DNA of 33,296 bases from NCBI GenBank assembly GCA_030636255.1, contig DAOVXH010000001.1:1-33296 (forward strand), read 5' to 3'. Shown here piece after piece: positions 13,224 to 31,485 of this stretch. The notes below the pieces were generated by a model. The model was not told where the DNA came from. It made no database searches and worked only from the letters and a program-made list of their open reading frames with translations. Origin of the DNA: Methanomassiliicoccales archaeon. GTDB lineage: Archaea > Thermoplasmatota > Thermoplasmata > SG8-5. The position numbers were made by a program, and so were the translations under genes. Position 1 is the stretch's first letter; every line of letters begins with the position of its first letter.

Positions 13224-16200
13224 TCAATCCTTGAACTTTTCCATATTATGATTGTACTGGGCTTCAGACAGACGACCTTCATCAAATGCTTTTTGAATTC
13301 TCACCCTGGCTGCTTCTTTATCAATTCCCGGGGAAGATTCTTGAACTGGCTCTGCTGGTTCCTTCATGGGTTTTTCTTCTTCTGGCAATTCATCCTTCTT
13401 CTTGGGTTTACCGGGCTTTTCCCTGCTGGTCAATACAATCACAAGTGCTGCAATAGCAATTCCAGATAACAGTACCACGTCAATCCATTTTGGTCGAGTG
13501 TCAGTTTCTATTTCAGAGGTATGGCCGCCGTCATCAACTGGACTCAGTTCAATCTCATAAAATTCTGTGATATTTTCATTACCATATACATCTGTAGCTA
13601 TTATTCTGTAATGGAAGTCTGTGTGGTCCAGTCCCACAGGGTATGCCTCTGCGGTGTAGGTATTGCCATCAGTATTGTTCATGTCAATGATGAAGTATGG
13701 AGAACAGGCCTGGGGCGTGCATGAAAAGTATGACATCTGTACTGATTCTATTTCACTGGTATCGCCCACCATAATCTCGATGCTTATCTGCTGGTCTGCA
13801 TCTGGGTGGTCTGGAGCATATGTTGGATTGATTATCTGCGGTGGCGCAATGTCATCCTTTACATCGACCTCAACAGTGGAATATGTTTGTATTGTAAGGT
13901 CAGAAACATCAATGGCATGAACCTTGAATTTGTCTGTCTGGCCGTTCCATGTGATGTTTCCGGTAACTGCCAGGTCGAAGCTTGTGCTGGACTCTGCAGG
14001 AATGGAAAGCGAGATCTGGGAAAACTCTGTGTCCCAGTTTGATGGGGCATCCACAGAAAGATTGACTGTAACCTGGAAATACATGTAATTGTGAAGAGTG
14101 AATTCAAATTCTGCCGTGCTATTTGGCAATGCGGATTTTTCTGGTTCCTGGGCAATCATGTAAAGCTCATCTTCACCTTCTGGAACAATCATGAAACTGT
14201 TTACCTGAACACCATTCTGCCAGGCAACTACTACTAGGCCAATATTTCCAAGCCGTAAATCATTGAACTGAACTGCTGAGGTATTGGTCCATGAGCTTTC
14301 AATATCAAGTGTCTCGCCTGCTGGAACAGTGTATGTGTCGTTTACAAGGATGTCAATAAAAGCGTTTGGTATCGGATGGCCCTGATAATTAAGCCAGCGT
14401 GATGATTTCTCCACAAGGAATGCTTCCACAAGAATTGTTTCATCAGAATCTCCGTGATTGCCAATTGATACAACTGTGCCCAGTATTCTTGAAAGGTCAG
14501 TAAACTGGCCTCCGAATGTCAAATTCAAATCTGCCATACTTGTTGATTTAATTTCTGTCAGGTATTCATTGTATGCTGATGAAGCACTGGATGCGCCAAT
14601 TATCTCCCCTGGACCCCCGGCAAACACTGCCCAGGGGTGACCAATATCACCATCTATATTCAGCTTATTCGCCAGAGTCTCCTCTCTGTAAGACGCATAC
14701 TGGCCAGATAGGCCCGGAGCATCTGTTACAAAGGTTGCAAAAGAAGTTTCTCCCTCCTTTTCAAGATCTACAAGGGCATCCTCACTCTTATTGCAATTGA
14801 CACATCCCAGATCAACATAAAGTTCAGTGAACACTAGCTTGTCTGATGGCACAATTGGACCTATTGGGCTGTCAGTTATAACATGCCTAGCTAATGCATC
14901 TGCAAGTGATGTGTTAAGGTTCTCTCGCTTGCTGGCTCCCTGGTCTGCCGATGAACCATACTGGGTATTGTAGATTATTTCCGGTTCAGTACCGTTCATT
15001 TCCACGATTATGGTTGTGAACATTGGCACTCCAAATCGTGAGTCAGGGGAACCAGCAAAGTCATAGACATCGTAACTTGCGTCTTCCTCTGCTGTTGCAT
15101 GGTCCAGGTTGATGTGGACGAACTCAATTTCATTGCCATATTCCTCTTCCAGAATGGCAATATGCGGCTCCATCTCATCGCAACCTGAACACACATCAGT
15201 ACGATAATGCAAGAATACTGGTTGGGTTGGAAGGACTTCTGTTACTAAGGTAGGTTGCGTCCCTTCAGAAGAGCGCCATTCATTCACAACATTTGGGTCA
15301 AGGGCCAGACAGCCAAGGCAAGGTATGGCGTTTATCTCGTCAGTTCGGTCATATCCGCCCATCATGACTCCGGCAGTAAGCATTGACGCGCTTCCAAGAA
15401 GGAGAACTATCCAGATAACTGCCATTTTATTGTTCTTGAAAGGCATTATTCCTAATTTTAATGAGCCAAATTTACAGCTGGTAACACATCTGCCGCAGAG
15501 AATGCACTCCATGTCCTCTTTTGTGCCTACCTGCTTGATATCCATTGGACATGTAGCATCACAGACATTGCAACTCTTGCATGTGTCTTCATTGCGCCGC
15601 ACCCCAATGGCAGAGACCTTGTTCCAGGGAGCCAGGTATGCTCCAATAGGGCAGAGATACTTGCACCAGCCTCTTGTTACCAGAATAATTAGAATAGTGA
15701 AAAGAATCATTGATGTAAGCTTCACAGGGAAGCCGCTTCCAAACAGCCATTCGCTTGAATAAAATGTCAGGGTGGGAAGTGTGCCGGTTATTCCCCCAAT
15801 GGGGCATAATGCCGTGTAAAACAGCTCCTGAGAGAGAAATGCAGTGACAGGTACAGCCAGGAGCATTAGAAACTTCATGTGTTTCCATTTTGGATTCACA
15901 TTTGGTTTGAGCTTATTATCCACTTTTTTACTTATACCCAGTTTTCTTGATAAGTCCTGAAGTGCACCAATTGGACATGCCCAGCCACAGAACGCCCTGC
16001 CAAAAAGTACACCCATGAGGGACAGGAATCCAAAAAGGTAAAGCAGCATTGAGAGGCCTACCATGAAGGTTATCTGGATATCAATGAACCCATGCTCCAT
16101 TATGCCAAGAGGGCAAGAACCAACATCCCAGGGGCATGAATAGCAGAAGAAATAGGGATAGATGAGACCAGTGGTGGTTATGCCTGCCAGGCCCAGCAAG

Positions 16201-16253
16201 GTAATTGCCAGAAATGCAATCTGGGTTGTCCTTCTCAGTGTGGGGATTTTCAA
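13224..16253 (-). CDS. giant membrane protein: NapH/NosR/MauN-like polyferredoxin membrane module, two extracytoplasmic CxxC thioredoxin-fold domains, Ig-like domains, C-terminal TM and a SHOCT-like cytoplasmic tail
   Basis: CxxxCP(L/I)G-type motifs lie beside TM helices: CPWDVGSCPLG, FCGWACPIGALQD, LCPIGG, RGWCKYLCPIGA. Two ferredoxin motifs follow, CKSCNVCDATCP and CILCGRCVTSC, then a TM helix (MAVIWIVLLLGSASML). After that come CLGC (15309-15320), CSGC (15180-15191) and CVNC (14793-14804) in Trx-like contexts. The last TM helix is WIDVVLLSGIAIAALVIVLT. The start is uncertain: TTG 16253 is preceded by GAGG and lies just after the upstream stop, while the maximal ORF opens at TTG 16307. Confidence 0.8.
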   Translation of the reverse strand: MKIPTLRRTTQIAFLAITLLGLAGITTTGLIYPYFFCYSCPWDVGSCPLGIMEHGFIDIQITFMVGLSMLLYLFGFLSLMGVLFGRAFCGWACPIGALQDLSRKLGISKKVDNKLKPNVNPKWKHMKFLMLLAVPVTAFLSQELFYTALCPIGGITGTLPTLTFYSSEWLFGSGFPVKLTSMILFTILIILVTRGWCKYLCPIGAYLAPWNKVSAIGVRRNEDTCKSCNVCDATCPMDIKQVGTKEDMECILCGRCVTSCKFGSLKLGIMPFKNNKMAVIWIVLLLGSASMLTAGVMMGGYDRTDEINAIPCLGCLALDPNVVNEWRSSEGTQPTLVTEVLPTQPVFLHYRTDVCSGCDEMEPHIAILEEEYGNEIEFVHINLDHATAEEDASYDVYDFAGSPDSRFGVPMFTTIIVEMNGTEPEIIYNTQYGSSADQGASKRENLNTSLADALARHVITDSPIGPIVPSDKLVFTELYVDLGCVNCNKSEDALVDLEKEGETSFATFVTDAPGLSGQYASYREETLANKLNIDGDIGHPWAVFAGGPGEIIGASSASSAYNEYLTEIKSTSMADLNLTFGGQFTDLSRILGTVVSIGNHGDSDETILVEAFLVEKSSRWLNYQGHPIPNAFIDILVNDTYTVPAGETLDIESSWTNTSAVQFNDLRLGNIGLVVVAWQNGVQVNSFMIVPEGEDELYMIAQEPEKSALPNSTAEFEFTLHNYMYFQVTVNLSVDAPSNWDTEFSQISLSIPAESSTSFDLAVTGNITWNGQTDKFKVHAIDVSDLTIQTYSTVEVDVKDDIAPPQIINPTYAPDHPDADQQISIEIMVGDTSEIESVQMSYFSCTPQACSPYFIIDMNNTDGNTYTAEAYPVGLDHTDFHYRIIATDVYGNENITEFYEIELSPVDDGGHTSEIETDTRPKWIDVVLLSGIAIAALVIVLTSREKPGKPKKKDELPEEEKPMKEPAEPVQESSPGIDKEAARVRIQKAFDEGRLSEAQYNHNMEKFKD

Positions 16254-16266
16254 TTCAAGGCCTCGC

Positions 16267-18513
16267 TCATGATTTAGATCCAGGATATATAAGTACCACT
16301 GCAACAAGGATTGCGGCTATGGCAATTATTGCAATTACTGCCATTGTAGATGGGTCCTGAGTCTCTGCTTCATGCTCTGAGATTTCCGGATTGAGTGGTG
16401 CGGCATCATCTTCATCAAGAACACCGTCATCATCATCGTCGTCATCCTCATTGTTTCCAATGCCGTCATCATCGGTGTCTGTGTCCTCATTTTCATCCAG
16501 AGGGAATGCGTCTTCAGCATTTTCCACACCATCGCCATCAATGTCTGCATCTTCACCATTATTTGTGCCATCATTGTCAGTGTCCAGTGGCATTGTGTCC
16601 GAGATATCTGGAATTCCATCGCCATCATCGTCCTGGTCCATTGAATTCACAAGTCCATCATTGTCAGTGTCCATTGGGTACGGGTCCTCTGTGGCATCAT
16701 CCAGACCGTCACTGTCATCGTCCAGGTCTGCATTGTCACCTATATCATCACCATCATAGTCTGCCCATTCGGTATCGTCCAGTGGGAAAGCATCCAGATC
16801 ATTGTTAACATCATCGCCATCAATATCCTGGTCTGAATTATCACCAATGTCATCACCATCCAGGTCAGACCATTCGGTGGAGTTCAGTGGGAAGGCATCT
16901 TCATTGTCAGGGACATCGTCATTATCATCATCTTCATCCTCATTGTCACCTGTTTCATCGCCGTCTGTATCTGTGGTTTCATCAGGGTTCAATGGAAAAT
17001 CATCTTCCGAGTCAGGAACACCGTCATCATCGTCATCCAGGTCATCAATATCTGCGGTTCCATCGCCATCAAAATCTTCCAGAACTTCAAATTCTTTCCA
17101 GGCAATATTGTTCAGCTCGGAGCTTTCTTCTATCTCTCCTGCAGGGTCAGCCTCAACGGTTATGTTGTGGGTTCCAATTACCTGGAGCCAGGTAAGACCA
17201 TTTTCCATCCATTCACCTGGTGCAATTGTGTATCTGCTGGAATCCAGCAACTCACCATCCAGGGAAATATTTATCTGGGCATCCACAGCAGTTGCGATAC
17301 CATAATTGTAAACTGCAATTCCAACATGAAGGTCCACACCACCTACCTGGTTACCTGTCAATGTGATGTTCAATGGAGATGCAACCAAATCAGGTAAAGG
17401 CACAGCAACAACCATGAATACAGTATCATTCCAGGCAGTTATGCTGTATGTTGGACATACTGCTGTTATATTTACAGTGAAATCTCCGGTAATATTGGGA
17501 GAATTAATCTGTGCAGCATAATCACCATTGGCATCGGTTGCAACAATCCAGGAATCTCCGGTCTCTGGTATTTCCACTGTGACTTCCAGGCCTGCTGGTG
17601 CCGGTGCTCCGTCCAGTGTCACTGTTCCACTTGCCCATAATTGCTGCTCTGGGAGTGTTGTGGTTGTATTCAAATGCAAACTGGCATCAATTACAGGCAA
17701 AACCACATCAAATTGCGGTTCCGCATATCCAGTTATGCTTCTCACAACAGTATCATTCTGCACCGTGATATTCACTTCATATGAATCAGGGGTGGTTGGT
17801 GCAGTTATTTGAAGACTGTAATTTCCCTCAAGGTCTGTCTTCAGCTCATGGGTGTCGCCTCCTACCTTGATTGTGACATTTGTGGTTTCCATTGGAATTG
17901 TGTTGTTCCATGCCCCGGCCTCGGAATAGGTATGATTTGCAGTTCCATTTATCCATACATCCTGGCCTGGGTAAACTGTTGTAGGTTCAACCTGGGCAGT
18001 TACCTCTGTGTTTGTTGGAGGATTCTGAAATGTTCCCGAATTAATAGTAGCGTTCTCTGGCCACCAGAATACCTGGCCAGTGTCATCTTCAAATGTGATA
18101 TTGTAATTGACATAAATACCAGCCCCCCAGGAATCATCATTCCACCAGGACTTGTACCATAATCCGTATAGATTGCCACCCAAATGATCCATATCATCCT
18201 GGTACCATCCATAACATGCAGGAGAAAACATGGCAAGGCATTCGGCCGGAGTGCAGAATTCATTATTCACCTGGACCCTGACCAGAGGATTATCACTATC
18301 TATCTCTGCATAAATATATAGTTGATCCCCATCATTGCCCCAATCTGGAGTGTCTGGCCATATGAATCCTACGGGATTCTCCGGCACCTGGGTGATATTA
18401 CTCACACTAATAGAATTGGTGGTTGTTGGAATTTCGCTCGCTTGTGCAAGACCTATGAAAAACCCGGACATAAGAAGAAATCCAAGTATCATACTAGCTA
18501 TTCTAAACTTCAT
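16267..18513 (-). CDS. surface protein: signal peptide, beta-sandwich domains, CARDB domain, thrombospondin type 3 (Ca-binding) repeat array, C-terminal TM anchor
   Basis: The signal-like N-terminus is MKFRIASMILGFLLMSGFFIGLAQA. Two CarboxypepD_reg-like segments are present (TDLEGNYSLQI, TDANGDYAAQI). A CARDB-like segment follows (PDLVASPLNITL...NYGIATAVDAQINISLDG...ELNNIAW). Six or more DAFPLD..(E/T)W.D.DGDDIGDN units follow, then a C-terminal hydrophobic helix AVIAIIAIAAILVAVVLI. ATG 18513 lies 5 nt after GGTGA; the ORF track starts at GTG 18522. Confidence 0.85.
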   Translation of the reverse strand: MKFRIASMILGFLLMSGFFIGLAQASEIPTTTNSISVSNITQVPENPVGFIWPDTPDWGNDGDQLYIYAEIDSDNPLVRVQVNNEFCTPAECLAMFSPACYGWYQDDMDHLGGNLYGLWYKSWWNDDSWGAGIYVNYNITFEDDTGQVFWWPENATINSGTFQNPPTNTEVTAQVEPTTVYPGQDVWINGTANHTYSEAGAWNNTIPMETTNVTIKVGGDTHELKTDLEGNYSLQITAPTTPDSYEVNITVQNDTVVRSITGYAEPQFDVVLPVIDASLHLNTTTTLPEQQLWASGTVTLDGAPAPAGLEVTVEIPETGDSWIVATDANGDYAAQINSPNITGDFTVNITAVCPTYSITAWNDTVFMVVAVPLPDLVASPLNITLTGNQVGGVDLHVGIAVYNYGIATAVDAQINISLDGELLDSSRYTIAPGEWMENGLTWLQVIGTHNITVEADPAGEIEESSELNNIAWKEFEVLEDFDGDGTADIDDLDDDDDGVPDSEDDFPLNPDETTDTDGDETGDNEDEDDDNDDVPDNEDAFPLNSTEWSDLDGDDIGDNSDQDIDGDDVNNDLDAFPLDDTEWADYDGDDIGDNADLDDDSDGLDDATEDPYPMDTDNDGLVNSMDQDDDGDGIPDISDTMPLDTDNDGTNNGEDADIDGDGVENAEDAFPLDENEDTDTDDDGIGNNEDDDDDDDGVLDEDDAAPLNPEISEHEAETQDPSTMAVIAIIAIAAILVAVVLIYPGSKS
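16384..17079 (-). repeat. tandem imperfect coding repeats (thrombospondin type 3 / DxDxDGxxDxxD calcium-binding units), ~232 codons
   Basis: Repeated D(A/D)FPL(N/D)...D.DGD.IGDN.D.D.DGD units are visible in the translation. The DNA is GAT/GAC-rich with matching periodicity. The opposite strand yields long Ser- and His-rich pseudo-ORFs. Confidence 0.85.
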
Positions 18514-18571
18514 TATATTCACCTATTTTTAATGGAATTTGTGAGAGATTAAGTATTTCAAATATTAAAAG

Positions 18572-18602
18572 ATGAGAGAGGGGACAGTGCCCCCCATCTC
18601 AT
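18572..18602 (-). terminator. hairpin plus T-run immediately downstream of the 806-aa gene
   Basis: On the minus strand the sequence reads TAA-ATA-ATGAGA-TG-GGGG-gcactgt-CCCC-TC-TCTCAT-C-TTTT. Two stem segments (6 bp and 4 GC pairs) are followed by TTTTAATATTT. The promoter and GGTGA of the 751-aa gene follow. Confidence 0.55.
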
Positions 18603-18605
18603 TAT

Positions 18606-21023
18606 TTAGACGTCTACAGTCCAGATTACAAATGCATCTACATGTATCCAGTATGCATTACCCTCTGCCAGGTCTACCTGAGTCAAATCACTCTCGTCAA
18701 CAATATATGGTGATGCTGCCTGGTATTCTGCAATCCTATCTGCTCCAGTTCCAAGCAATGAGTCAAAGGCATTTTCACCAATTGCTGATGGATATCCAAC
18801 AAGATTCCAGCCAGGATAGAGCGTGACTCCCACCGGGGCTGCCGAGTAATCGCCATCAATGCCTGTTGTCAGGACTCCGCCATCATGGGCAGTCAAGTGA
18901 AGCCAAATACCCATGCTGTTGGTGAGCATTGGCATGTCACTGAGACCAGGGCTATTTCTGCTGTGTGTCCTCCAAGGATGAAGTGTGTCATTTGCATCAA
19001 ACCACTTGGCAATATCCCATGTTGTGCCTCCATCTGCATCTGTAAGTACTGTCTCAATATCCCCGGTCATAGCATATGGGAATGAGACAAATACCCAGCT
19101 TCCTGGGCCTGCTGCTACAGGAATCGGAATGTCATACGGAGCCAAGATAGGTTCCACACCGGAGCCTATGGTGAAATCAAAATTGCTTATATCTTCGGTT
19201 ACCAAACTCTCTGAGTCTGTGGCAACTACCCTTATCCTGCAGACAGACGAATCAATACTTGGTGTTGTCCAATAGTGAATTCCATCATTGACAGTTCCGG
19301 TTGTGATTGCCTGCCATGTTGCTGTTGGGTAATCCGTACAATAATAGATGTCTATTCCATTTTCAGGAATATCAACATCATGTGCATCCCATCGGATGAT
19401 TACATCCTCTGCCTGGGCAAATGTCTCGCCGCCATTGGGGAACGTGACTTCAACCTCTGGAGGTATTGCCGCATTCTGCCAGGTTAGAATTCTTGTTAGA
19501 ACAGTTTCATCATCAGAATCTGCATCGATGGTATCGGTCATGACGAAATAATCACCGCCAAAGAATACTGTCCTTCCACCGCCTGAGTGAATCGAACGAA
19601 CTGCCATGTTTGGACCATTGTCATAAGTGAAACAGACAGTGCCACCTATTTCTGCGGTAATAGAGTCTGGAGTACCTGCACTGGTGTTCACAGGAAGACC
19701 CGAAAGTCCGTCACCAATTGGATCGCTTGCAATACCATTGAATGATGTACCACCGGAATCACCTGCAGCAAATGAGGTTTTGAAATTCGTTTGAAGCCAT
19801 GAGTTCCAGCCATTGGAATTTGCGTCCTCAGCTATGTTTGAACCTGTGAGGAATGCATTACCACCGCCAATCAAATAGTCCTGAAGATTAGTTCTGTCTG
19901 CCACATCAAGTGTTGTGGTATCAGGGCCAGTATACCAGATTACAGTTGAATATTTCTGTAGGTCTGCCAGGGTAGGCATGGTCTTAACATTTAGAAGGGC
20001 TGTATCAGTTGCTTCAATTGTGTCCCAGGTTCTGGCCTTTACTCCAATTTTAACCAGTTCTTCTACAATATAGTCTGCATTGTCATCAATGGCATCGGTT
20101 CCATCACCATTAACCAGTAAAACCTCTGCATCCACAAATTCGTGCTTGGCTGCTTGAAGTATCGGAAAATTGTGATAGGTATCTTTACCTTGTTTGTAAT
20201 CGTAATTTGTTGTGGATTGAACCATTGTAACTGCGGAAATATCTCTGGGATCCATGTCAGGATACCATGCGGGGTCAAGTGCAAATGAGATATTGTACTC
20301 AAGGTGTGTCCCAACACCGATTCCGCCAGGAAGGGCTATAGGATCTAGGATATCCCTGCAAACGCCATTGTAAACCCTGTGATGGCCATATACTTCATTT
20401 GTATTGGCATCGAAGTGATGTTTTGTGGATTCCATTATCACAGTGGTGAGTTCCAGGGAGCTTTCTGTAGGAACATCAGTAAAATCAAGGATAACATGCA
20501 GATTGCCGTTCAATCCCTCGATATCTCCCTCAATATCAATTGTGCATGGGGCTCCTGCTCCTGCGCCAGTTGTTTCCTCTAGGTAGTCGGCTTTGTCAGC
20601 AACATATACATCATATTTATCATAACCTCCAGAGCCCCTTAAGTGTATATCTGTGTACGGGCCACCGCCATCAAATATTACAGATGGAATTCCAGGAACT
20701 GCGTATTTATTTGCCCTAGGAATTACATCTGGAACGGTAAATTCATCAGATGTGTGGTATTCAATTATTATGGGCCCATTTGGGTAATATTCTTCATATA
20801 ATCTTTCCATTGAATGTGTCTGTGTTGGACAATAAGGACACCAATCAGATGTGAATTGTTCGACAACTACAGTTCTGGGAGAAGAACCTGCATATATCAC
20901 TGGTGGCTCGTCAATTACATCAACTGAAGTCTCGCCTGTATCTGTTCCCGCACTCACCAACGCTAACCCACTCATAATCATAGAGATAGCAAGTATGCTT
21001 GCCATCAACTTAATACCCTTCAT
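18606..21023 (-). CDS. secreted protein: Omp28-like/thioredoxin-fold CPYC domain, GATase1/ThuA-like domain, Ig-like domain, and a 176-aa C-terminal domain shared with the S8 protease
   Basis: The signal-like N-terminus is MKGIKLMASILAISMIMSGLALVSA. VVVEQFTSDWCPYCP contains the CPYC at 20829-20840. The KYSTVIWYTGPD...LQDYLIGGGNAFLTG pattern follows, then FPNGGETF...IRWD. The C-terminus ends GNAYWIHVDAFVIWTVDV. ATG 21023 lies 7 nt after GGAGG; the ORF track starts one codon earlier at TTG 21026. Confidence 0.85.
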   Translation of the reverse strand: MKGIKLMASILAISMIMSGLALVSAGTDTGETSVDVIDEPPVIYAGSSPRTVVVEQFTSDWCPYCPTQTHSMERLYEEYYPNGPIIIEYHTSDEFTVPDVIPRANKYAVPGIPSVIFDGGGPYTDIHLRGSGGYDKYDVYVADKADYLEETTGAGAGAPCTIDIEGDIEGLNGNLHVILDFTDVPTESSLELTTVIMESTKHHFDANTNEVYGHHRVYNGVCRDILDPIALPGGIGVGTHLEYNISFALDPAWYPDMDPRDISAVTMVQSTTNYDYKQGKDTYHNFPILQAAKHEFVDAEVLLVNGDGTDAIDDNADYIVEELVKIGVKARTWDTIEATDTALLNVKTMPTLADLQKYSTVIWYTGPDTTTLDVADRTNLQDYLIGGGNAFLTGSNIAEDANSNGWNSWLQTNFKTSFAAGDSGGTSFNGIASDPIGDGLSGLPVNTSAGTPDSITAEIGGTVCFTYDNGPNMAVRSIHSGGGRTVFFGGDYFVMTDTIDADSDDETVLTRILTWQNAAIPPEVEVTFPNGGETFAQAEDVIIRWDAHDVDIPENGIDIYYCTDYPTATWQAITTGTVNDGIHYWTTPSIDSSVCRIRVVATDSESLVTEDISNFDFTIGSGVEPILAPYDIPIPVAAGPGSWVFVSFPYAMTGDIETVLTDADGGTTWDIAKWFDANDTLHPWRTHSRNSPGLSDMPMLTNSMGIWLHLTAHDGGVLTTGIDGDYSAAPVGVTLYPGWNLVGYPSAIGENAFDSLLGTGADRIAEYQAASPYIVDESDLTQVDLAEGNAYWIHVDAFVIWTVDV
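18609..19139 (-). repeat. dispersed coding repeat, copy 1 (C-terminal domain shared with 26449-26976)
   Basis: The two C-termini align end to end. About two thirds of residues are identical by eye, and similarity is visible at the DNA level. Confidence 0.85.
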
Positions 21024-21054
21024 CAATTTTCCTCCAATCTCTTATTCTTATTAT

Positions 21055-23981: not shown

Positions 23982-24926
23982 ATGCCAAAGAAAAAAAGTT
24001 CCAGTAAATCAAATAAATCTTCAACCAGCAAAAAAAAGGATGATTATGCAAATCAACTTTTTGACTGGCTTTCCGAGGGATATGTTGTCAAACCCCTGAC
24101 CGAGGTCATCAAGTCCAAGGACACAAAGAAAATGGATGAGATGTTCTCTGATTATTCTGATAAAATAAGCAGACTGAAGGATGTAAAAGCTAAACTTCAG
24201 GATTTGGAGTTTGACCAAAATCACAGCATGTACGATGAGGTTAACAAGAAGCTCAATGACCCAATGCAGGTGGCCTATCTTGAAAATTTCGCAAGATTAT
24301 TTGAGGAGGGGCCAAAACTCAATGAGCTTAAAGCAGAGCTGGCAAGCCTTAATACCACAGGTTTCGAAGAGATGGTCAAGCAAATAAAAACAATGTTCAA
24401 GGATAATGATGATGTAGATGACATTGAGAGGGCCATCAAGAAGCTGAAGAAAAAGATCAAGGAAAAATTCTTTGAATCAGCATTCGAGGAGGAGGCTATT
24501 CCACTGGAGGAAGAGAAAGAAGACAAATTTATTGCAGAGACCATTTTCCTTCTGCACAAGGATGGTACACTCCTTTCAGTTAAAAGTAAAAAACCACCAG
24601 CCCAACTAGATAAGAAACTTATGTCAAGGATGGTAATGGCCATAAAGGAACAGATGAACCGTGCCTTCAAGGAGGGGGAACATGTGCATACCCTGAATTA
24701 TGAAGGACATACAATCATTCTGGAGGACAGCGTCCATGTCTATGCTGCAATTGTTGTGGTGGGCGAGGCAAAGCCAGTCATGTACAGAATAATTCTCAAA
24801 GCTTTGCAGATAATGGAAAAGAAACTGATCAAGGAATTTGATGACTGGACTGGAGACAGATCCAAACTTGAGAACCTGGACAGATACACAAGTGCTATTT
24901 TCCAGGCATTGGATAGGCTCCATTGA
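23982..24926 (+). CDS. coiled-coil protein with C-terminal Roadblock/longin-like alpha-beta module (function unknown)
   Basis: 314 aa. The N-terminus is K/S-rich and is followed by long heptad-like charged helices (KKLKKKIKEK). The C-terminal module is ETIFLLHKDGTLLSV...MVMAIKEQMNRAF...HVYAAIVVVGE...DDWTGD. Confidence 0.7.
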   Translation: MPKKKSSSKSNKSSTSKKKDDYANQLFDWLSEGYVVKPLTEVIKSKDTKKMDEMFSDYSDKISRLKDVKAKLQDLEFDQNHSMYDEVNKKLNDPMQVAYLENFARLFEEGPKLNELKAELASLNTTGFEEMVKQIKTMFKDNDDVDDIERAIKKLKKKIKEKFFESAFEEEAIPLEEEKEDKFIAETIFLLHKDGTLLSVKSKKPPAQLDKKLMSRMVMAIKEQMNRAFKEGEHVHTLNYEGHTIILEDSVHVYAAIVVVGEAKPVMYRIILKALQIMEKKLIKEFDDWTGDRSKLENLDRYTSAIFQALDRLH

Positions 24927-24927
24927 G

Positions 24928-24971
24928 TCCTAACTTTGATATTTTACGATAAATAAGCAAAAAAGTTAGGA
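24928..24971. repeat. 9-bp perfect inverted repeat TCCTAACTT-N26-AAGTTAGGA just after the stop of the 314-aa gene
   Basis: Read directly. It lies in the spacer before the V4R gene. It may be a weak terminator or processing hairpin. Confidence 0.3.
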
Positions 24972-25058
24972 AGAACGCAGATTTGGCAGCGTGAATATGA
25001 TGTCAAATTTGCGTTAACTTAATTAACTGTGCAAAATTATTTAACCCATTATGTAGAT

Positions 25059-25484
25059 ATGAGTGGCACCATGAGGTTTATTAGGATTTCGCAGGAAGAG
25101 TTGGCTAAAATTCGTAGTTTATATGAAAGCGTGATGTCTCATGCCTGCCATGGCCTTTTCTACAGGGAAGGAGGGACCCTGGGCAAGGAAATAGTAAAGA
25201 TGGCAAGCGAGGACAATGACAACTTTTTGGAAACCGCAGGAAGGCTCATAAAAGGAAGGGGCTGGGTAGAAGATATTAGCTTCATGGGAGATAGAGTCAT
25301 CATCAATGGCTCTTTCGAGGCAAAAGTTGGTCTTGAGGAACCATCTTGCCACAGGCTAAGAGGAATGGTGCATGCTATACTCGAGCATCACACAGGCAAA
25401 AAGCTTGTGTGCCTTGAAGAGAAATGCATAAGTATAGGAGATGCACTATGTGAGATTGTCGTTAGAGATATGGAGGGAAGCTAA
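25059..25484 (+). CDS. V4R (4-vinyl reductase) domain protein
   Basis: The sequence is GLFYREGGTLGKEI...GRLIKGRGWVEDI...CHRLRGMVHAIL...CLEEKCISIGDALCEIVV, with the conserved Cys pattern of V4R small-molecule-binding domains. The start is ATG 25059 or ATG 25071; the GTG at 25029 is less likely. Confidence 0.8.
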   Translation: MSGTMRFIRISQEELAKIRSLYESVMSHACHGLFYREGGTLGKEIVKMASEDNDNFLETAGRLIKGRGWVEDISFMGDRVIINGSFEAKVGLEEPSCHRLRGMVHAILEHHTGKKLVCLEEKCISIGDALCEIVVRDMEGS

Positions 25485-25835
25485 ATGACAGAAGTGAGGA
25501 AGATACTGGACCAGTTAAAAACCATTGAAGGTGTGATTGGTTGCGGAATTGTGAGTAAGGACGGACGTCCGGTGGAGATGAGATTACCCTCAGACATGAA
25601 CGTGGAGACCATAGCCATAATGGCAGCAACAGTATTTGGCGGCTCCATGACATTGAATACTGAAGCGGGTAGGCAAAATCCCAGAACAATAAAGATAAAA
25701 ACAGAAGGTTTCAAAACTACTATATGCCAATGCGGCAGACGATCCTTGGCAATTGTCATGATGGAAGATAATACAGACAGGGATCAGGTAAACGAATTTC
25801 TAAATCAACTGGGAAATGAGTTCAGGATTAGCTAG
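25485..25835 (+). CDS. Roadblock/LC7 (MglB-like) domain protein
   Basis: 116 aa. ILDQLKTIEGVIGCGIVSKDGRPVEMRLPSDMNVETIAIMAATVFG is a canonical Robl/LC7 N-terminal pattern. The ATG is the base immediately after the V4R stop. Confidence 0.88.
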   Translation: MTEVRKILDQLKTIEGVIGCGIVSKDGRPVEMRLPSDMNVETIAIMAATVFGGSMTLNTEAGRQNPRTIKIKTEGFKTTICQCGRRSLAIVMMEDNTDRDQVNEFLNQLGNEFRIS

Positions 25836-25879
25836 TTTCAAAATTTGGCAAACATAACTGGTTAAATGTCATATTTGGA

Positions 25880-26278
25880 TTAGTTCTCATCCCTTGACCA
25901 GATATCGTCATTCATTTCTCCATATATTGCATATTCATCTATTTCTTCCACTTCTTCCTTTCCTCTGGATAATTTTAGAATATATGGGCGGTTTAAAAAC
26001 CAGTAATGAAGTCTCCAGACCTTTCCCTTCTTAATGGTGACCTCTTCCTGCCTGGTATATACCAATCTTTCTTCTTCAAGTTTATAGAATATATCACGGT
26101 TTTGAGGAGTTAAACGGTTATCAACAATAGCATAATCAAAACCATAGAGGCTTATAACAAACTCTGCAAGATCCTGAACAGCTTCTTCAGAATAGCCCTT
26201 CTCACCTAGGGTCTTCTGAAATGCAATCACCAGATCCTCCAATTTTATTACCGCCACTGTGCCTCCTCGGCATCTCAA
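25880..26278 (-). CDS. hypothetical protein, possible winged-helix fold with acidic C-terminus
   Basis: This is a 132-aa ORF. IFYKLEEERLVYTRQEEVTIKKGKVWRLHYW looks like a recognition helix plus wing. The maximal ORF opens at TTG 26278. GTG 26257, preceded by GGAGG, is an alternative start. Confidence 0.55.
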   Translation of the reverse strand: MRCRGGTVAVIKLEDLVIAFQKTLGEKGYSEEAVQDLAEFVISLYGFDYAIVDNRLTPQNRDIFYKLEEERLVYTRQEEVTIKKGKVWRLHYWFLNRPYILKLSRGKEEVEEIDEYAIYGEMNDDIWSRDEN

Positions 26279-26445: not shown

Positions 26446-29400
26446 TTATGGGCTTACAGTCCACGTAATCAATGCGTCTACATGAATCCAGTAAGCATTG
26501 CCTTCTGACATGTCTACCTGACTCAAGTCACTCTCGTCATTGATGTATGGTGTTGCTGCCTGGTATTCTCCAATCCAGTTCACTCCAAGACCTAGCAATG
26601 AATCCGCGGCGTTTTCGCCTGTTACAGATGGGTATCCAACAAGATTCCATCCTGGATTCAGTGTCACATCAACAGGTACGGCGGAGTAATCACCAACGCT
26701 GCTTGTTGTCAGTGTTCCGTCATTGGCTGTCAAGTGCAGCCACACACCCATGTTCTGGTTGATTTGTGGCATGTCGCTGAGACTTGGGCTGTTTACACTG
26801 TATGTCTTCCATGGATTGCTGGCATCAAGTGGGTTGTACCATTTTGCAATATCCCAGGTTGTACCGCCGCCACTGAAGTCTGTAAGAACAGTTTCAATAT
26901 TACCGTTCATCACATACGCAAAGGACACGAATGCCCATTCGCCGACTGAATAACCTGACGTATCAATGTCGTAACCGAACTGTGGTTCTCCACCAGCGTC
27001 ATTGATGGTAAAGGTAGTTGAGTCATAACTGCCCCAGTTACCCTGTGCGTCCCTTCCATGTATGTATAATGTGTGTTCACCTATGCTCCATGTGGCTGAA
27101 GTACCGCCATTCAAGGTCACATCTTCCACAGCAAGGTTAAAGGCACCATCTGCTGGGTCCAGCGCTGTTCCAAATCCATCTGAGCCAACTGAGTCAATAA
27201 AGTACTCTGCTTCGGCAATAGCGGAACCGCCCTTATTGCTGTCATCGATAGTGGCATTGAACCAGACATTTGTAAACTGATCTACTGGATTTGGTTCTAC
27301 ACGTATGGAACCTGCCTGAACTACCGGACCCTGTGTGTCTCCACCAGGTCTATTGATGGAGAATACTGCATCGGATTCATCCGAACCAACAAGGTATGGA
27401 GCTAAATCATCAGTCACTACCATTTTTATGAGGTAGTTAACACCGTTCTCCAGAGCTGAAACATCCCAGTCTGCATCTCTATCAGCGATACCTATTGGGG
27501 CCACTGTAGTTGCAGGGAACCAGGCATCACCAGCATTGGGGCTGTAGAACATCTCCTGTGACAGAACACCTGCGCCATAGGTTGTAACATCCCACTGAAC
27601 ATTGTATGTGTCAGTTACTATGGTCTCGCCACCATCTGGTTGTATTATAGAAACATCAGGATGGTCATGACTGCCAAGAAGCCAGGTTATACCCTTATCA
27701 AGAACTTCCGAACGTATTGCAGTCTCGACAACATAGCCTCCACCGACAGCTGTCCATTCGAAACAGTTAATGACTTTTCTTGTGTTTGTGCCGTCCCATA
27801 CTATAGCAGGATCGTCACCACCAACTGAGTCATTGGCTGCTGTGGACACCGCCTTAATTCCTGCATTGTTCATTAGGTAGTTAATACCATTGAGGAACCA
27901 GACATTGGATGTAGTGTATCCTGATGGTACAGCTGTAATCTCATCACCGGCTCCTCCAGCATCCATTACTTCAAGAGTAATTCCGCCAGTGTAATCCCCA
28001 CTTATGAGGTCACTAGCTACACCTACCAATTCGTTTGCTTCTGCATAATCATTGACCCAATTAGTGTTCATCTGGGAAGCTAACCACGAATCTGTAGCTG
28101 CATCGCCATTACCGCCACTAGCCATACCCCAAGCAATATCGTGACCTGAGGCCCATATCCTGCCGCCGCCATCATTGTAATCCTTGACTATTGACTGTTG
28201 GTTGGCTGAGAATGGTGGGTAGTAATTGCTACCAATTTGCCACATAACAATCTTGTAACTCTGCAGGGTTGCCAGTGATGGATCGCCATCAAGCCATGTT
28301 GGCCAGATATTATAACTCCAGCCTAGCTGGGTCAGTGACCATTCATAGCAATCACGAACATATGCTAATGAGCTTAGGCCCCTCTCATAATCTGGTGGGG
28401 CACCATTCATTACCACCAATATGTCACCTTTGCTTCCAGTGGTGAAGGTATAATGGTCTCCTCCATTGTCATCTCTTACGACATTACCATGCAAATCAGT
28501 TGATTCCACATCATAGTAATAAAGGGTTCCACCGGTCATACCAGATACGGTCACCAAAGCAGATGTAGTGTATGGAGTATCCATTACCTCCTTCTGACTA
28601 AGGCTAGCAGGGACTGTACCATAATAAACGGTCGCGTTACCCTGTTCACTTAGGTCCCAAGCAACCTGTGCCGAGGATATGGTTGTCAATTCGGTTCTAA
28701 CATTGGTTATTACGGGGCCATAACCATCAATTGATGCGTAGGCATAGGCCATGTGTGGATTACCTGTGGTATCATCATATGCTGCTATTATGTCATCGTC
28801 GCCTGTAACTGCAAGAATACCATTACCTGCTGGGTCTGCGCCATTCAGTGTGAATTCTACTGTACCTTCAAATGTGCCTGCGCCACCCTCTGTAAGGGTT
28901 ATGGACTCACTGTCACCAGAGCCAGCTGAGCTGACATCAACTGCCAGTGTACCTGCACCTACTTTTCCTGAATCTTCTACAATTATGTTAGCGACCTGGT
29001 TAACTCCGTAAAGATCCTGGTCCAACTGAATTGTACCATAGTCCAGGTCCAATGAACCAGTCAGGACTATTGCAAAGGGCTGTGGAGCAAAATCAACATC
29101 GTAGCCGGTAACACGAACCACAACTTCACCACCGCTGGCAGGGAGTCCGCCAGTCGCAATCTTGATGTGTTCAATATTGTTAACGCGGTCATTGGTTTCT
29201 GTAGTGACTGGAACAGAGTATCCCGGGGTTCCTGAGAACACGTTGCCGTAGTATATGTTTCCATTCACTTCAACTTCCAGATCCAAATCATTGACAAGTG
29301 CAACGCTTGAACCTGCAATTGCAGGGTAGTCATTCCAGCATATTGTGACTCTGAGGTCCTGGGCATTGTCCTCTACCCAATATTTGTACTCTACAGTTCT

Positions 29401-31485
29401 TCCGGTCTCGACACCATTGTCACCGTCAAATACCTGAAGCTTTCTGGCATCTTCGGTTGGGGTAGAGAAGTACAGTGAGTTGTCCAGATTAATACGGCCG
29501 AATCCCTGGTCTGGGTTCGGGTAAGCCATATTTCCGTTTCCGATGTCATACTGAATATTGTGTGCTCCAAGGCCAGTCATCTCATCAGCACCGTTAACTA
29601 ACAGGGCTTTGATTAGGCTGTGGCTTGGATCAAACTCATTGCCGGCAACTTCCGCGCCAGTTGGGTAAAATCCAGTCATGAAGTACTGGTTGCACAAAAG
29701 AATGGCTGCAATTGCATTTGGGGCGGCCATACTTGTTCCGTCGAATGACACTGAAAGGGTTGTGCTACTTGACTGTGCAGAATCCACTCTCTGTCCTGAT
29801 GCCATAACATCTGGCTTAATCCTGTTATCGAATGTAGGGCCACGGGAACTGAATGCAGATACTTCCTCAATATTTTGCTGACGCCTCTGGTTTACTGACA
29901 TCGCATCGTGTCCACATGAACCGATGGATATAGTGTTCTTCGATTCTGCCTGCTGACCAATAGTTCCAGAGCTAGGACCTGAATTACCTGCGCTCCATGT
30001 GAACAACCATTCTGGATTGTCATAAACCCACTGGTCAATCATCTGAGCATCACCAGTGTATATACCCTGGGAATCTGATCCCCAGCTCTGTGTGTAAGCC
30101 CTTGCGCCGTCATCTTTTGAAGGCTGCCAGGTGGTATAATAATCAGCTGGTGGGTACACATATTGTGGATCCATAGTGATTTCATTACCGATATCAAAGA
30201 AAGAAACCTTTGCACCAGGTGCTGTACCATCATCTGCATTGGAACCGCCTACTGGATCATCGTATCCTATAACCGTTCCTATAACGTGGGTTCCATGATC
30301 ATTAGAGCCATCTGCATAGTGGTCATTTTCAGCTGCATCGTCGGTCATGTACCTAACTATCTTCCTGTGGGATATGACTGTGTTGAGTGGTATGTCATCG
30401 TTGTCATATGTTGTGCCATCATTCTGGAACATAAGGTGATCTACCCTTATTCCAGAATCTGAACATCCAAATACCACTGGATTTCCAGTTCCATCATCCT
30501 GACCATAAATTCCCTGATTCCACACAGGTGTTGTTGTATCGACAACATTATAGTTATCATTGAGAGGGTCAGGTGCACCAGTATATACAAGTGCAGTTCC
30601 AGACTGAGTAATACTGTGTGACATGTCATTGTAATTCTTTGGCTGGTCAAAGTATTCTATTCTCAAGACACCATCAATTTGTGCAATATCGCCAAGAAGG
30701 GATGTATCGAAGTTTGCCCTTATGTAGCCCATTGTCTCGCCGGCAATATGTGTCGGCATAGCATAATCGTCAAAGAATTTGCCCTTGCCAGATTTGGCCA
30801 GGAGCTTGGCAACTTCGGAATTTACATATGACTGTTTTTCCGGGAAAGTGTATATAGTTACTGGTTGCTCTCCAGACTTGCCATCGAATACCTGAGATAT
30901 CTTGTAGCCAGGTTCAAAATTACCTACCCACATGACAGAATCCAGGTTCTTTATAACTTCTAGGGAATCTGTGTTCATGCCAACAAGTGCGGTGTATGAG
31001 TCTGCAGGCCCATAGATTTTTCCGCCATTTCGCTCAACATCATCTTGCCACTCTTGCTTGACTGGGCCAATGAATTTTACAAAGTAATAATCATAGTATC
31101 TAGCTTCCTGGGTTCTAAGATTTTCCGAGATGGGTGAATTGCCCTTCATCACATCATGGGAATAACCATTGAAGTTGAATGTAGTTCTGGACTTCATAGT
31201 TTCTACTTGACGTCCCCTCTGGAGCTGTACTTTCTGCTCTGAAGTGATCTCGGCCATTACGAAACTATCATATTCCTCGACTACCTTGATATTACTTGGT
31301 AAATCAGTTGCATCCTCCGTCCTATCCAACTGGATGATTACATACTCTGTATCTGCAATTGCATCTACTGTTTCTGTATCATAAGTTCCAGCTAGTGTAA
31401 GGCCGGCAGGTATCACCATTGCTAATGCAATAGCAATAACCAAAACTCTGCTCACAAAAGTCTTTCTATTATTCTCTTGTTCCAT
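26446..31485 (-). CDS. giant secreted subtilisin-like serine protease (peptidase S8) with propeptide-like repeats, P-domain-like beta-sandwich, FN3-like domain, GATase1/ThuA-like domain, Ig-like domains and the shared C-terminal domain
   Basis: 1679 aa, with an N-terminal anchor/signal VSRVLVIAIALAMVIPAGLTLA. The catalytic triad motifs are GCSDSGI (Asp codon 30457-30459), HGTHVIGT (His codon 30295-30297) and GTSMAAP (Ser codon 29731-29733), plus SAGNSG. P-domain-like sequence LVNDLDLEV...NNIEHIKI follows. GGAGG lies 7 nt upstream of ATG 31485. Confidence 0.92.
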   Translation of the reverse strand: MEQENNRKTFVSRVLVIAIALAMVIPAGLTLAGTYDTETVDAIADTEYVIIQLDRTEDATDLPSNIKVVEEYDSFVMAEITSEQKVQLQRGRQVETMKSRTTFNFNGYSHDVMKGNSPISENLRTQEARYYDYYFVKFIGPVKQEWQDDVERNGGKIYGPADSYTALVGMNTDSLEVIKNLDSVMWVGNFEPGYKISQVFDGKSGEQPVTIYTFPEKQSYVNSEVAKLLAKSGKGKFFDDYAMPTHIAGETMGYIRANFDTSLLGDIAQIDGVLRIEYFDQPKNYNDMSHSITQSGTALVYTGAPDPLNDNYNVVDTTTPVWNQGIYGQDDGTGNPVVFGCSDSGIRVDHLMFQNDGTTYDNDDIPLNTVISHRKIVRYMTDDAAENDHYADGSNDHGTHVIGTVIGYDDPVGGSNADDGTAPGAKVSFFDIGNEITMDPQYVYPPADYYTTWQPSKDDGARAYTQSWGSDSQGIYTGDAQMIDQWVYDNPEWLFTWSAGNSGPSSGTIGQQAESKNTISIGSCGHDAMSVNQRRQQNIEEVSAFSSRGPTFDNRIKPDVMASGQRVDSAQSSSTTLSVSFDGTSMAAPNAIAAILLCNQYFMTGFYPTGAEVAGNEFDPSHSLIKALLVNGADEMTGLGAHNIQYDIGNGNMAYPNPDQGFGRINLDNSLYFSTPTEDARKLQVFDGDNGVETGRTVEYKYWVEDNAQDLRVTICWNDYPAIAGSSVALVNDLDLEVEVNGNIYYGNVFSGTPGYSVPVTTETNDRVNNIEHIKIATGGLPASGGEVVVRVTGYDVDFAPQPFAIVLTGSLDLDYGTIQLDQDLYGVNQVANIIVEDSGKVGAGTLAVDVSSAGSGDSESITLTEGGAGTFEGTVEFTLNGADPAGNGILAVTGDDDIIAAYDDTTGNPHMAYAYASIDGYGPVITNVRTELTTISSAQVAWDLSEQGNATVYYGTVPASLSQKEVMDTPYTTSALVTVSGMTGGTLYYYDVESTDLHGNVVRDDNGGDHYTFTTGSKGDILVVMNGAPPDYERGLSSLAYVRDCYEWSLTQLGWSYNIWPTWLDGDPSLATLQSYKIVMWQIGSNYYPPFSANQQSIVKDYNDGGGRIWASGHDIAWGMASGGNGDAATDSWLASQMNTNWVNDYAEANELVGVASDLISGDYTGGITLEVMDAGGAGDEITAVPSGYTTSNVWFLNGINYLMNNAGIKAVSTAANDSVGGDDPAIVWDGTNTRKVINCFEWTAVGGGYVVETAIRSEVLDKGITWLLGSHDHPDVSIIQPDGGETIVTDTYNVQWDVTTYGAGVLSQEMFYSPNAGDAWFPATTVAPIGIADRDADWDVSALENGVNYLIKMVVTDDLAPYLVGSDESDAVFSINRPGGDTQGPVVQAGSIRVEPNPVDQFTNVWFNATIDDSNKGGSAIAEAEYFIDSVGSDGFGTALDPADGAFNLAVEDVTLNGGTSATWSIGEHTLYIHGRDAQGNWGSYDSTTFTINDAGGEPQFGYDIDTSGYSVGEWAFVSFAYVMNGNIETVLTDFSGGGTTWDIAKWYNPLDASNPWKTYSVNSPSLSDMPQINQNMGVWLHLTANDGTLTTSSVGDYSAVPVDVTLNPGWNLVGYPSVTGENAADSLLGLGVNWIGEYQAATPYINDESDLSQVDMSEGNAYWIHVDALITWTVSP
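26449..26976 (-). repeat. dispersed coding repeat, copy 2 (C-terminal domain shared with 18609-19139)
   Basis: See copy 1. The sequence runs GYDIDTSGYSVGEWAFVSFAYVMNGNIETVLTD...GWNLVGYPS...GNAYWIHVDALITWTVSP. Confidence 0.85.

Follow-up and report, generated by a model that had tools for sequence, protein, structure and literature searches.

Two proteins encoded in the window, which is the whole 33,296-nucleotide stretch analyzed here (Methanomassiliicoccales archaeon, GTDB lineage SG8-5; assembly GCA_030636255.1, contig DAOVXH010000001.1, positions 1 to 33,296), end in the same C-terminal domain (CTD) of about 175 amino acids (aa). Judged by sequence, the CTD is a large conserved family that falls within no named family of the libraries searched. 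The features of the CTD that are new here are its two-module duplication, its C-terminal bias, its association with export, its mostly unrelated cargo, its copy number per genome, and its archaeal distribution; literature searches on the CTD motif and on C-terminal sorting in Thermoplasmata found no description of the domain. We consider the chance about even that the CTD acts as a non-covalent cell-surface retention module for exported proteins. The two carriers, ORF A and ORF B, and their CTDs were located as follows (HMM, hidden Markov model).

18606..21026, minus strand: ORF A, 806 aa, exported thioredoxin-like (CPYC) protein with the CTD at its end (ORF list, translation)
18609..19139, minus strand: ORF A CTD, aa 630-806, stop codon at 18606-18608 (BLASTP against ORF B, E 5e-67; family HMM domain E 6e-81; AlphaFold pLDDT 92.0)
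18864..19136, minus strand: ORF A CTD module 1, aa ~631-721, W.FVSFP ... TWDIAKW ... PW.T. ... MGIWLHLT (half-domain HMM E 2.4e-29)
18612..18857, minus strand: ORF A CTD module 2, aa ~724-805, GWNLVGYPS ... EGNAYWIHV ... WTV (half-domain HMM E 1.5e-30)
26446..31485, minus strand: ORF B, 1679 aa, exported subtilase with the CTD at its end (ORF list, translation, Pfam)
26449..26976, minus strand: ORF B CTD, aa 1504-1679, stop codon at 26446-26448 (BLASTP; family HMM domain E 3.6e-80)
26704..26973, minus strand: ORF B CTD module 1, aa ~1505-1594 (half-domain HMM E 2.8e-33)
26455..26694, minus strand: ORF B CTD module 2, aa ~1598-1677 (half-domain HMM E 7.8e-30)

The initial annotation of this DNA had described the last ~176 residues of the two proteins as aligning end to end, and BLASTP bore this out: residues 618 to 804 of ORF A and 1492 to 1677 of ORF B were identical at 122 of 189 positions (65%), with 5 gap positions and an E value of 5e-67, and every motif block listed there as common to both proteins was seen in the alignment. 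The limits set by the family HMM (aa 630 to 805 in ORF A and aa 1505 to 1679 in ORF B) agreed with the extent proposed. The similarity extended to the DNA, as had also been claimed, with 69.7% identity over 186 aligned codons and 52% identity at third positions; dN was 0.24 and dS 1.40, giving a dN/dS of about 0.17. The two copies evidently go back to an ancient duplication and have been kept under purifying selection; the dS and the third-position identity rule out recent gene conversion between them. A six-frame HMM scan of the window detected the copies in ORF A and ORF B and no third copy.

The translations show, as annotated, that both proteins begin with a hydrophobic segment and lack a hydrophobic helix at the C terminus. 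The term giant that had been applied to both suits ORF B (1679 aa) and not ORF A, which is not really large. The description of the two proteins as otherwise different did not survive, because a second BLASTP high-scoring segment pair joined aa 351 to 620 of ORF A to aa 1069 to 1377 of ORF B (25% identity over 316 columns; E 1e-7); this shared region had no Pfam match. The CTD is nevertheless conserved far above the cargo, with 65% identity in the window pair versus 25% or nothing elsewhere in the proteins. The second shared region consists of an unassigned domain of ~170 aa (LLV.GDG...Y..VIW.TG...GGG..L.G) with an Ig-like domain after it, and a similar-looking segment, recognized by eye and not by alignment, follows the CTD of an unrelated carrier (P0070). 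The region is possibly a further module, as yet unnamed, that recurs in CTD-bearing exoproteins.

The domain is by no means restricted to these two paralogs. An exhaustive HMM search retrieved 4580 cluster representatives at E<=1e-3; 2126 of them remained at E<=1e-10 and 315 at E<=1e-30. A word-indexed search returned 11 relatives, each ending in the CTD, and a second profile search returned 323 proteins. Among the 120 of these 323 that were listed, those with names were called "hypothetical protein" except for four with domain-based labels (Ig-like domain, parallel beta-helix repeat), and the organisms, where given, were Thermoplasmata or Ca. Proteinoplasmatales, the exceptions being one partial match in a metagenome-assembled genome (MAG) of Asgard archaea (Ranarchaeia) and one in a Deltaproteobacteria MAG. 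None of the 120 proteins that the word-indexed profile search listed was longer than 303 aa, whereas the exhaustive search with a similar profile gave many carriers of 1000 to 3400 aa; the word-indexed search therefore seems biased to short, fragmentary proteins, and its counts understate the family.

The annotators' failure to place the domain in a named family was confirmed. The window CTDs matched no Pfam-A or NCBIfam model at E<=1, a set of 27 diverse CTDs gave no consistent Pfam match at E<=10, and PDB sequences gave nothing below E 0.75 with profiles of 13 and 84 sequences. In particular, no match to a Pfam carbohydrate-binding module (CBM) or lectin family was found. IMG/VR viral contigs were also scanned, on the rationale that viral carriers would point to host-surface binding, and the narrow pattern used (WNLVGYP) found no CTD relative among them.

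The CTD is a tandem duplication of a ~85-aa beta module, because its halves match profile to profile in register. Alignment of the two halves of the family alignment with hhalign gave a probability of 77% and an E value of 2.1e-5 over 72 columns, and the register was as expected, with I.L..W.FVSFP falling on I.L..GWNLVGYP and MGVWLHLT on GNAYWVHVT. Each module carries one GWNLVGYP-type and one GxAYWVHV-type motif, and in a variant subfamily module 1 retains GWNLISLP. The N-terminal boundary of the CTD is sharp, consisting of a Gly/Pro-rich linker and then P-Y-[DN]-I-[DN]-L-[TS]-G.

Structure prediction and fold searches, which had been recommended with the annotation, produced a confident model without a significant structural relative. 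AlphaFold gave an all-beta model with a pLDDT of 85.7 from 13 sequences and 92.0 from 84 sequences (pTM 0.72). Foldseek with the latter model found no significant match in the PDB (best E 0.12, TM<=0.26) or in BFVD (best E 0.23), and the former gave no significant match in the PDB; the top non-significant matches were proteins with two beta-sandwich or jelly-roll domains. The CTD is acidic (median pI 4.3), and its Trp content is 5.0%, compared with 2.8% in the upstream 600 aa, a richness that is compatible with glycan binding. N-glycosylation sequons were not depleted in the CTD beyond the expectation from composition. Overall, the CTD can be described as an autonomous, all-beta domain that is acidic and rich in Trp.

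The C-terminal placement seen in the window proved to be a strong bias. The CTD lay within 10 residues of the C terminus in 147 of 159 database proteins, and in genomic DNA, independently of gene calls, a stop codon followed within 10 codons in 98 of 108 and 90 of 94 complete copies (188/202; 93%). It is not a fixed rule, since ~7% of the genomic copies stood inside the protein or at its N terminus or preceded a linker and a membrane helix. The internal and N-terminal exceptions included copies ahead of DUF11-type repeats, and the database proteins also had a few tandem copies. In P0092 and P0123 the CTD stands near the N terminus (aa 218-391 and aa 64-232, respectively), a placement showing that the C terminus is not the only position in which the module can function; the portion after the CTD resembles, by eye, the Porphyromonas-type peptidyl-arginine/agmatine deiminase family.

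In several exceptions, a P/S/T-rich linker of ~60 aa leads from the CTD to a hydrophobic membrane helix and a basic tail, and because these elements come directly after it, the CTD adjoins the membrane in such forms. Both InhA-like and NosD/DUF11 proteins, which are unrelated, occur among the anchored forms, making at least two types of cargo. The C-terminal ~85 aa of L013, L015, L012, L151, P0036, and P0090 consisted of a P/S/T/E-rich linker, ...SGL(Q/L)L, a hydrophobic helix, and an R/K-rich end; L004 had the same layout of linker and helix without the SGL motif. The recurring SGL/SGGL before the helix suggests, as a possibility, a lineage-specific archaeosortase-type signal.

An N-terminal hydrophobic segment was present in 132 of the 149 carriers with complete 5' ends, compared with 0.5% of control windows, so a putative signal peptide accompanies most carriers, although not every one. 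Carriers ranged from 411 to 3013 aa, the CTD was almost always single per protein, and no CTD-only ORFs were found among them. Pfam domains in 41 full-length carriers included Peptidase_S8 (9 proteins), NosD/Beta_helix (5), M14 (3), FG-GAP (3), C11 (2), and C1 (1), in addition to PKD, Big, and others. Among 381 within-genome pairs of carriers, 229 had no detectable similarity upstream of the CTD, and 34 were paralogous over most of their length. The cargo of the CTD is thus mostly unrelated, and the earlier claim of differing secreted cargo stands for the family at large.

Two scans of collections with one genome per species each yielded more than 520 confirmed stretches, the figure from the first being a lower bound. 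The suggestion of a lineage-specific archaeal domain was supported: all 154 best loci came from archaeal MAGs, assigned to Thermoplasmata, Methanomassiliicoccales, Proteinoplasmatales (SG8-5), or Methanobacteriota or, once, only to "archaeon", and almost all belonged to Thermoplasmata or a lineage within it. Related MAGs held many carriers each. Counted from the fetched loci only, and therefore as lower bounds, there were at least 33 distinct copies in chromosome CP070751.1, at least 23 in CAYHBA01, and at least 17 in CP070739.1. CTD genes often clustered, as in the window, with 109 copies in 76 loci. The mean identity of CTDs was 52% within a genome and 43% between genomes, and the nearest CTD neighbor came from the same genome in 57 of 105 cases, compared with 10.4 +/- 3.5 after label shuffling. 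This would be the pattern expected of a module co-evolving with a genome-specific partner.

In several uncultured Thermoplasmata lineages, including SG8-5 (Ca. Proteinoplasmatales), the CTD has been joined to dozens of unrelated, apparently Sec-exported proteins per genome. If it is a retention module, an N-terminal signal peptide, to which the hydrophobic segments point, would carry each protein across the single membrane; the CTD would bind one common envelope component, for which a glycan or lipoglycan of the surface, a protein of the S-layer or glycocalyx, or another CTD might qualify; and peptidases, redox proteins, and adhesin-like proteins would remain associated with the cell instead of being lost to the sediment by diffusion. 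Retention at the surface is suggested by the conservation of the CTD irrespective of cargo, by its occurrence almost always once per protein and always attached to cargo, by its high copy number per genome, by its higher similarity within than between genomes, by its juxtamembrane position in the anchored forms, and by the ecological logic for sediment protein degraders (PMC9123169). The sorting or cell-surface attachment role proposed in the initial annotation therefore stood in part: the C-terminal bias, the export, and the many cargos agree with it, the non-terminal copies and the lack of a linked partner do not, and attachment itself is what we infer. A position-tolerant binding or retention module fits better than a cleaved secretion signal, because ~7% of the copies are non-terminal, which an obligatory cleaved C-terminal signal of the type IX secretion system (T9SS) kind would not tolerate.

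Several observations weigh against surface retention. No ligand or receptor was identified to which the proposed binding could be assigned, and no fold homolog in the PDB or BFVD hinted at a ligand. Clustering of the non-CTD ORFs from the 76 loci revealed no conserved neighboring gene, the best cluster covering 5 loci of 3 genomes, and the search for a co-occurring processing enzyme or receptor gene that had been suggested earlier thus found none linked to the carriers. Lineage-specific duplication alone can also give a higher CTD similarity within genomes. When the exported ORFs of the same loci were compared for a complementary distribution of CTDs and C-terminal membrane anchors, 22 of them carried neither feature, which means that anchoring is not universal there. 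The acidity of the CTD makes simple electrostatic binding to anionic lipids unlikely, and a self-sufficient anchor should not need the extra membrane helix found in some of the proteins. A single membrane-anchored CTD protein as the universal receptor was considered and rejected, since the anchored forms have at least two unrelated types of cargo.

A further reading, possible but in our judgment doubtful, is that the CTD would be the address tag of a hitherto undescribed, Thermoplasmata-specific surface-display system, in which a dedicated receptor or attachment enzyme would recognize the two-module domain and fix at least 17 to 33 different exoproteins per cell, including the main extracellular peptidases of archaea that degrade sediment protein, to the envelope. 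Such a system would be an archaeal counterpart of display by T9SS CTDs, SLH domains, or sortases, with a fold not represented in the PDB.

The main rival to surface retention is binding to substrate, in which the CTD would act like a CBM or lectin on a common environmental polymer or on a mineral or detritus surface and would target enzymes to that substrate and not to the producer cell. We regard this as rather unlikely. The Trp-rich, all-beta character of the CTD would suit it, as would the tolerance of N-terminal, internal, and tandem positions that is also seen with CBMs, the degradation of sediment protein by the hosts (PMC9123169), and the lack of a receptor gene among the neighbors at the 76 loci. 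The cargo, however, reaches beyond one enzyme class, with thioredoxin-like, FG-GAP, and beta-helix proteins and four peptidase clans, a breadth that would be unusual for a substrate-specific CBM; nearly always exactly one copy is present, at the extreme C terminus; some copies stand directly ahead of a membrane anchor; and no Pfam CBM or lectin family was matched.

The two other explanations seem to us still less probable, to a similar degree. A true sorting signal, recognized by dedicated machinery that cleaves the CTD and/or attaches the cargo covalently, would be an archaeal analog of the T9SS CTD and PorU or of sortase and archaeosortase; the C-terminal bias, the export signal, the dozens of cargos per genome, and the richness of that cargo in proteases and adhesins mirror T9SS sets. 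Some relatives among the Methanomassiliicoccales have been reported to have two membranes, which was counted in favor of this explanation, and if these Thermoplasmata do too, the signal might serve passage across the outer layer. A cleaved secretion or sortase-type signal is nonetheless less likely, because of the positional exceptions (internal, N-terminal, and tandem copies, as well as copies with their own linker and membrane helix), the lack of a conserved cleavage motif at the junction apart from the P-Y-x-I with which the domain itself opens, and the failure to find a linked candidate enzyme in the 76 loci; furthermore, at 175 aa and two modules the CTD exceeds known sorting tags in size, and T9SS CTD and PGF-CTERM models gave no sequence match. 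A structural or assembly role, with the CTD serving as an oligomerization or lattice-forming foot or as a cap for folding or stability and with no specific envelope ligand, is as improbable as the sorting signal. It would agree with two modules that appear packed as one unit in the AlphaFold model, with the constant association of the CTD with large multidomain proteins and never alone, and with its juxtamembrane position in anchored forms, but a pure folding aid would be expected neither on such unrelated cargo nor to be much better conserved than that cargo.

In its genomic pattern the CTD resembles T9SS CTDs, whereas the mode of action proposed for surface retention resembles that of SLH domains and Listeria GW modules. 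T9SS CTDs (Por_Secre_tail; Bacteroidota) are likewise all-beta and C-terminally biased and accompany dozens of signal-peptide cargos per genome, including proteases, beta-helix proteins, and adhesins. The Pfam-A and NCBIfam libraries contain T9SS CTD models, and the archaeal CTD matched neither Por_Secre_tail nor TIGR04183 in them; it is about twice as large and has two repeated modules, and ~7% of its copies are internal or N-terminal, positions that T9SS CTDs never occupy. T9SS hosts are diderm Bacteroidota, whereas the CTD hosts, in the window and the 154 loci, are archaeal; no direct search for T9SS genes was made. The GW modules of Listeria InlB and Ami are also tandem C-terminal modules of ~80 aa with a Gly-Trp dipeptide in each and with flexible position and copy number, and their non-covalent anchoring to lipoteichoic acid is proposed as a model for how the CTD might act. 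GW modules are basic and the archaeal CTD is acidic, and the latter had no Pfam match at E<=10 and no SH3-like homolog by Foldseek against the PDB, so the resemblance is functional and descriptive only.

Bacterial SLH domains are shared terminal modules, N- or C-terminal, that hold diverse exoproteins non-covalently on an envelope polymer; they are helical, ~55 aa long, and usually present in three copies, unlike the all-beta CTD, which had no Pfam sequence match. PGF-CTERM/archaeosortase signals similarly are C-terminal determinants common to many archaeal surface proteins, but they are short and tripartite and include a hydrophobic helix, whereas the CTD is globular, measures 175 aa, and lacks one; the window proteins end in ...WTVDV and ...WTVSP with no such helix and no NCBIfam match, and some CTD homologs have a separate signal of helix and basic tail after the CTD. 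The PPC domain or halolysin C-terminal extension is, like the CTD, a beta-rich C-terminal addition to secreted subtilases, from which the archaeal domain differs in lacking a sequence match and in not being confined to peptidases. The comparison of sequence models, fold matches, strictness of terminal position, and host machinery placed the CTD in none of these groups, and it is considered non-homologous to the named shared terminal retention and sorting domains.

Protein is actively degraded by SG8-5 archaea, whose extracellular peptidases include S8A and M14A enzymes; catabolism of sedimentary protein has been shown for few archaea, and SG8-5 (Ca. Proteinoplasmatales) and its uncultured relatives in the Thermoplasmata belong to these (PMC9123169). 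A single CTD HMM would list a large share of their exported proteome, including S8, M14, C11, and C1 peptidases and redox and adhesin-like proteins, and would define a family of thousands of members that now matches nothing in Pfam or NCBIfam. The CTD would also give a concrete handle for finding an envelope receptor. If it does retain proteins, it would be a new non-covalent anchoring mechanism in archaeal cell-surface biology, and it would bear on whether the enzymes do their work at the surface of the cell or are public goods of the sediment.

The remaining features of the two carriers in the window were the following.

20946..21026, minus strand: ORF A N-terminal hydrophobic segment, aa ~1-27, putative Sec signal peptide ending ...LVSA before G (translation reading; hydropathy criterion satisfied across the family)
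19167..19976, minus strand: ORF A aa 351-620, second region common with ORF B, unassigned domain plus Ig-like domain (second BLASTP segment pair)
31387..31485, minus strand: ORF B N-terminal hydrophobic segment, aa ~1-33, putative signal peptide (translation and hydropathy, protein P0020)
29533..30480, minus strand: ORF B subtilase catalytic domain, aa 336-651 (Pfam Peptidase_S8 PF00082, E 7.8e-32)
27355..28281, minus strand: ORF B aa 1069-1377, region common with ORF A (second BLASTP segment pair)

The listed start of ORF A is TTG (21021-21026), followed by ATG (L-M-K-G...), and the true start may be this ATG one codon downstream. Residues 45 to 280 of ORF A gave weak thioredoxin-fold and Omp28-related matches that fell below the curated cutoffs of Pfam-A and NCBIfam. 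A protein identical to ORF B is encoded on scaffold_1517 of the ENA metagenome ERZ23498475. The genes around the carriers encode aCPSF1/FttA, aRF1, ArgRS, and an XPD helicase, which identify the window as archaeal chromosome. Two genes lie downstream of ORF A.

16267-18522, minus strand: protein with CARDB and thrombospondin type 3 repeats, ending in a C-terminal membrane helix, directly downstream of ORF A
13224-16307, minus strand: 1027-aa NapH-like 4Fe-4S membrane protein with a thioredoxin-like segment, overlapping the previous ORF by 41 nucleotides

The neighbors had been said to end in transmembrane anchors, which holds for 16267-18522; in 13224-16307 the helix lies near the C terminus and is followed by a ~70-aa tail. 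Together with ORF A, these genes (13224-21026) have the appearance of an operon that encodes a redox or disulfide system outside the cytoplasm. Beside the XPD helicase gene, at 23982-26278, a conserved gene group encodes a 314-aa protein that matches nothing in Pfam, a 151-aa protein, a Robl_LC7 (roadblock/MglB-like) protein, and a DUF6015 protein, and homologs of the XPD, 314-aa, 151-aa, and DUF6015-type proteins are again found next to CTD genes in related MAGs (L018, L045).

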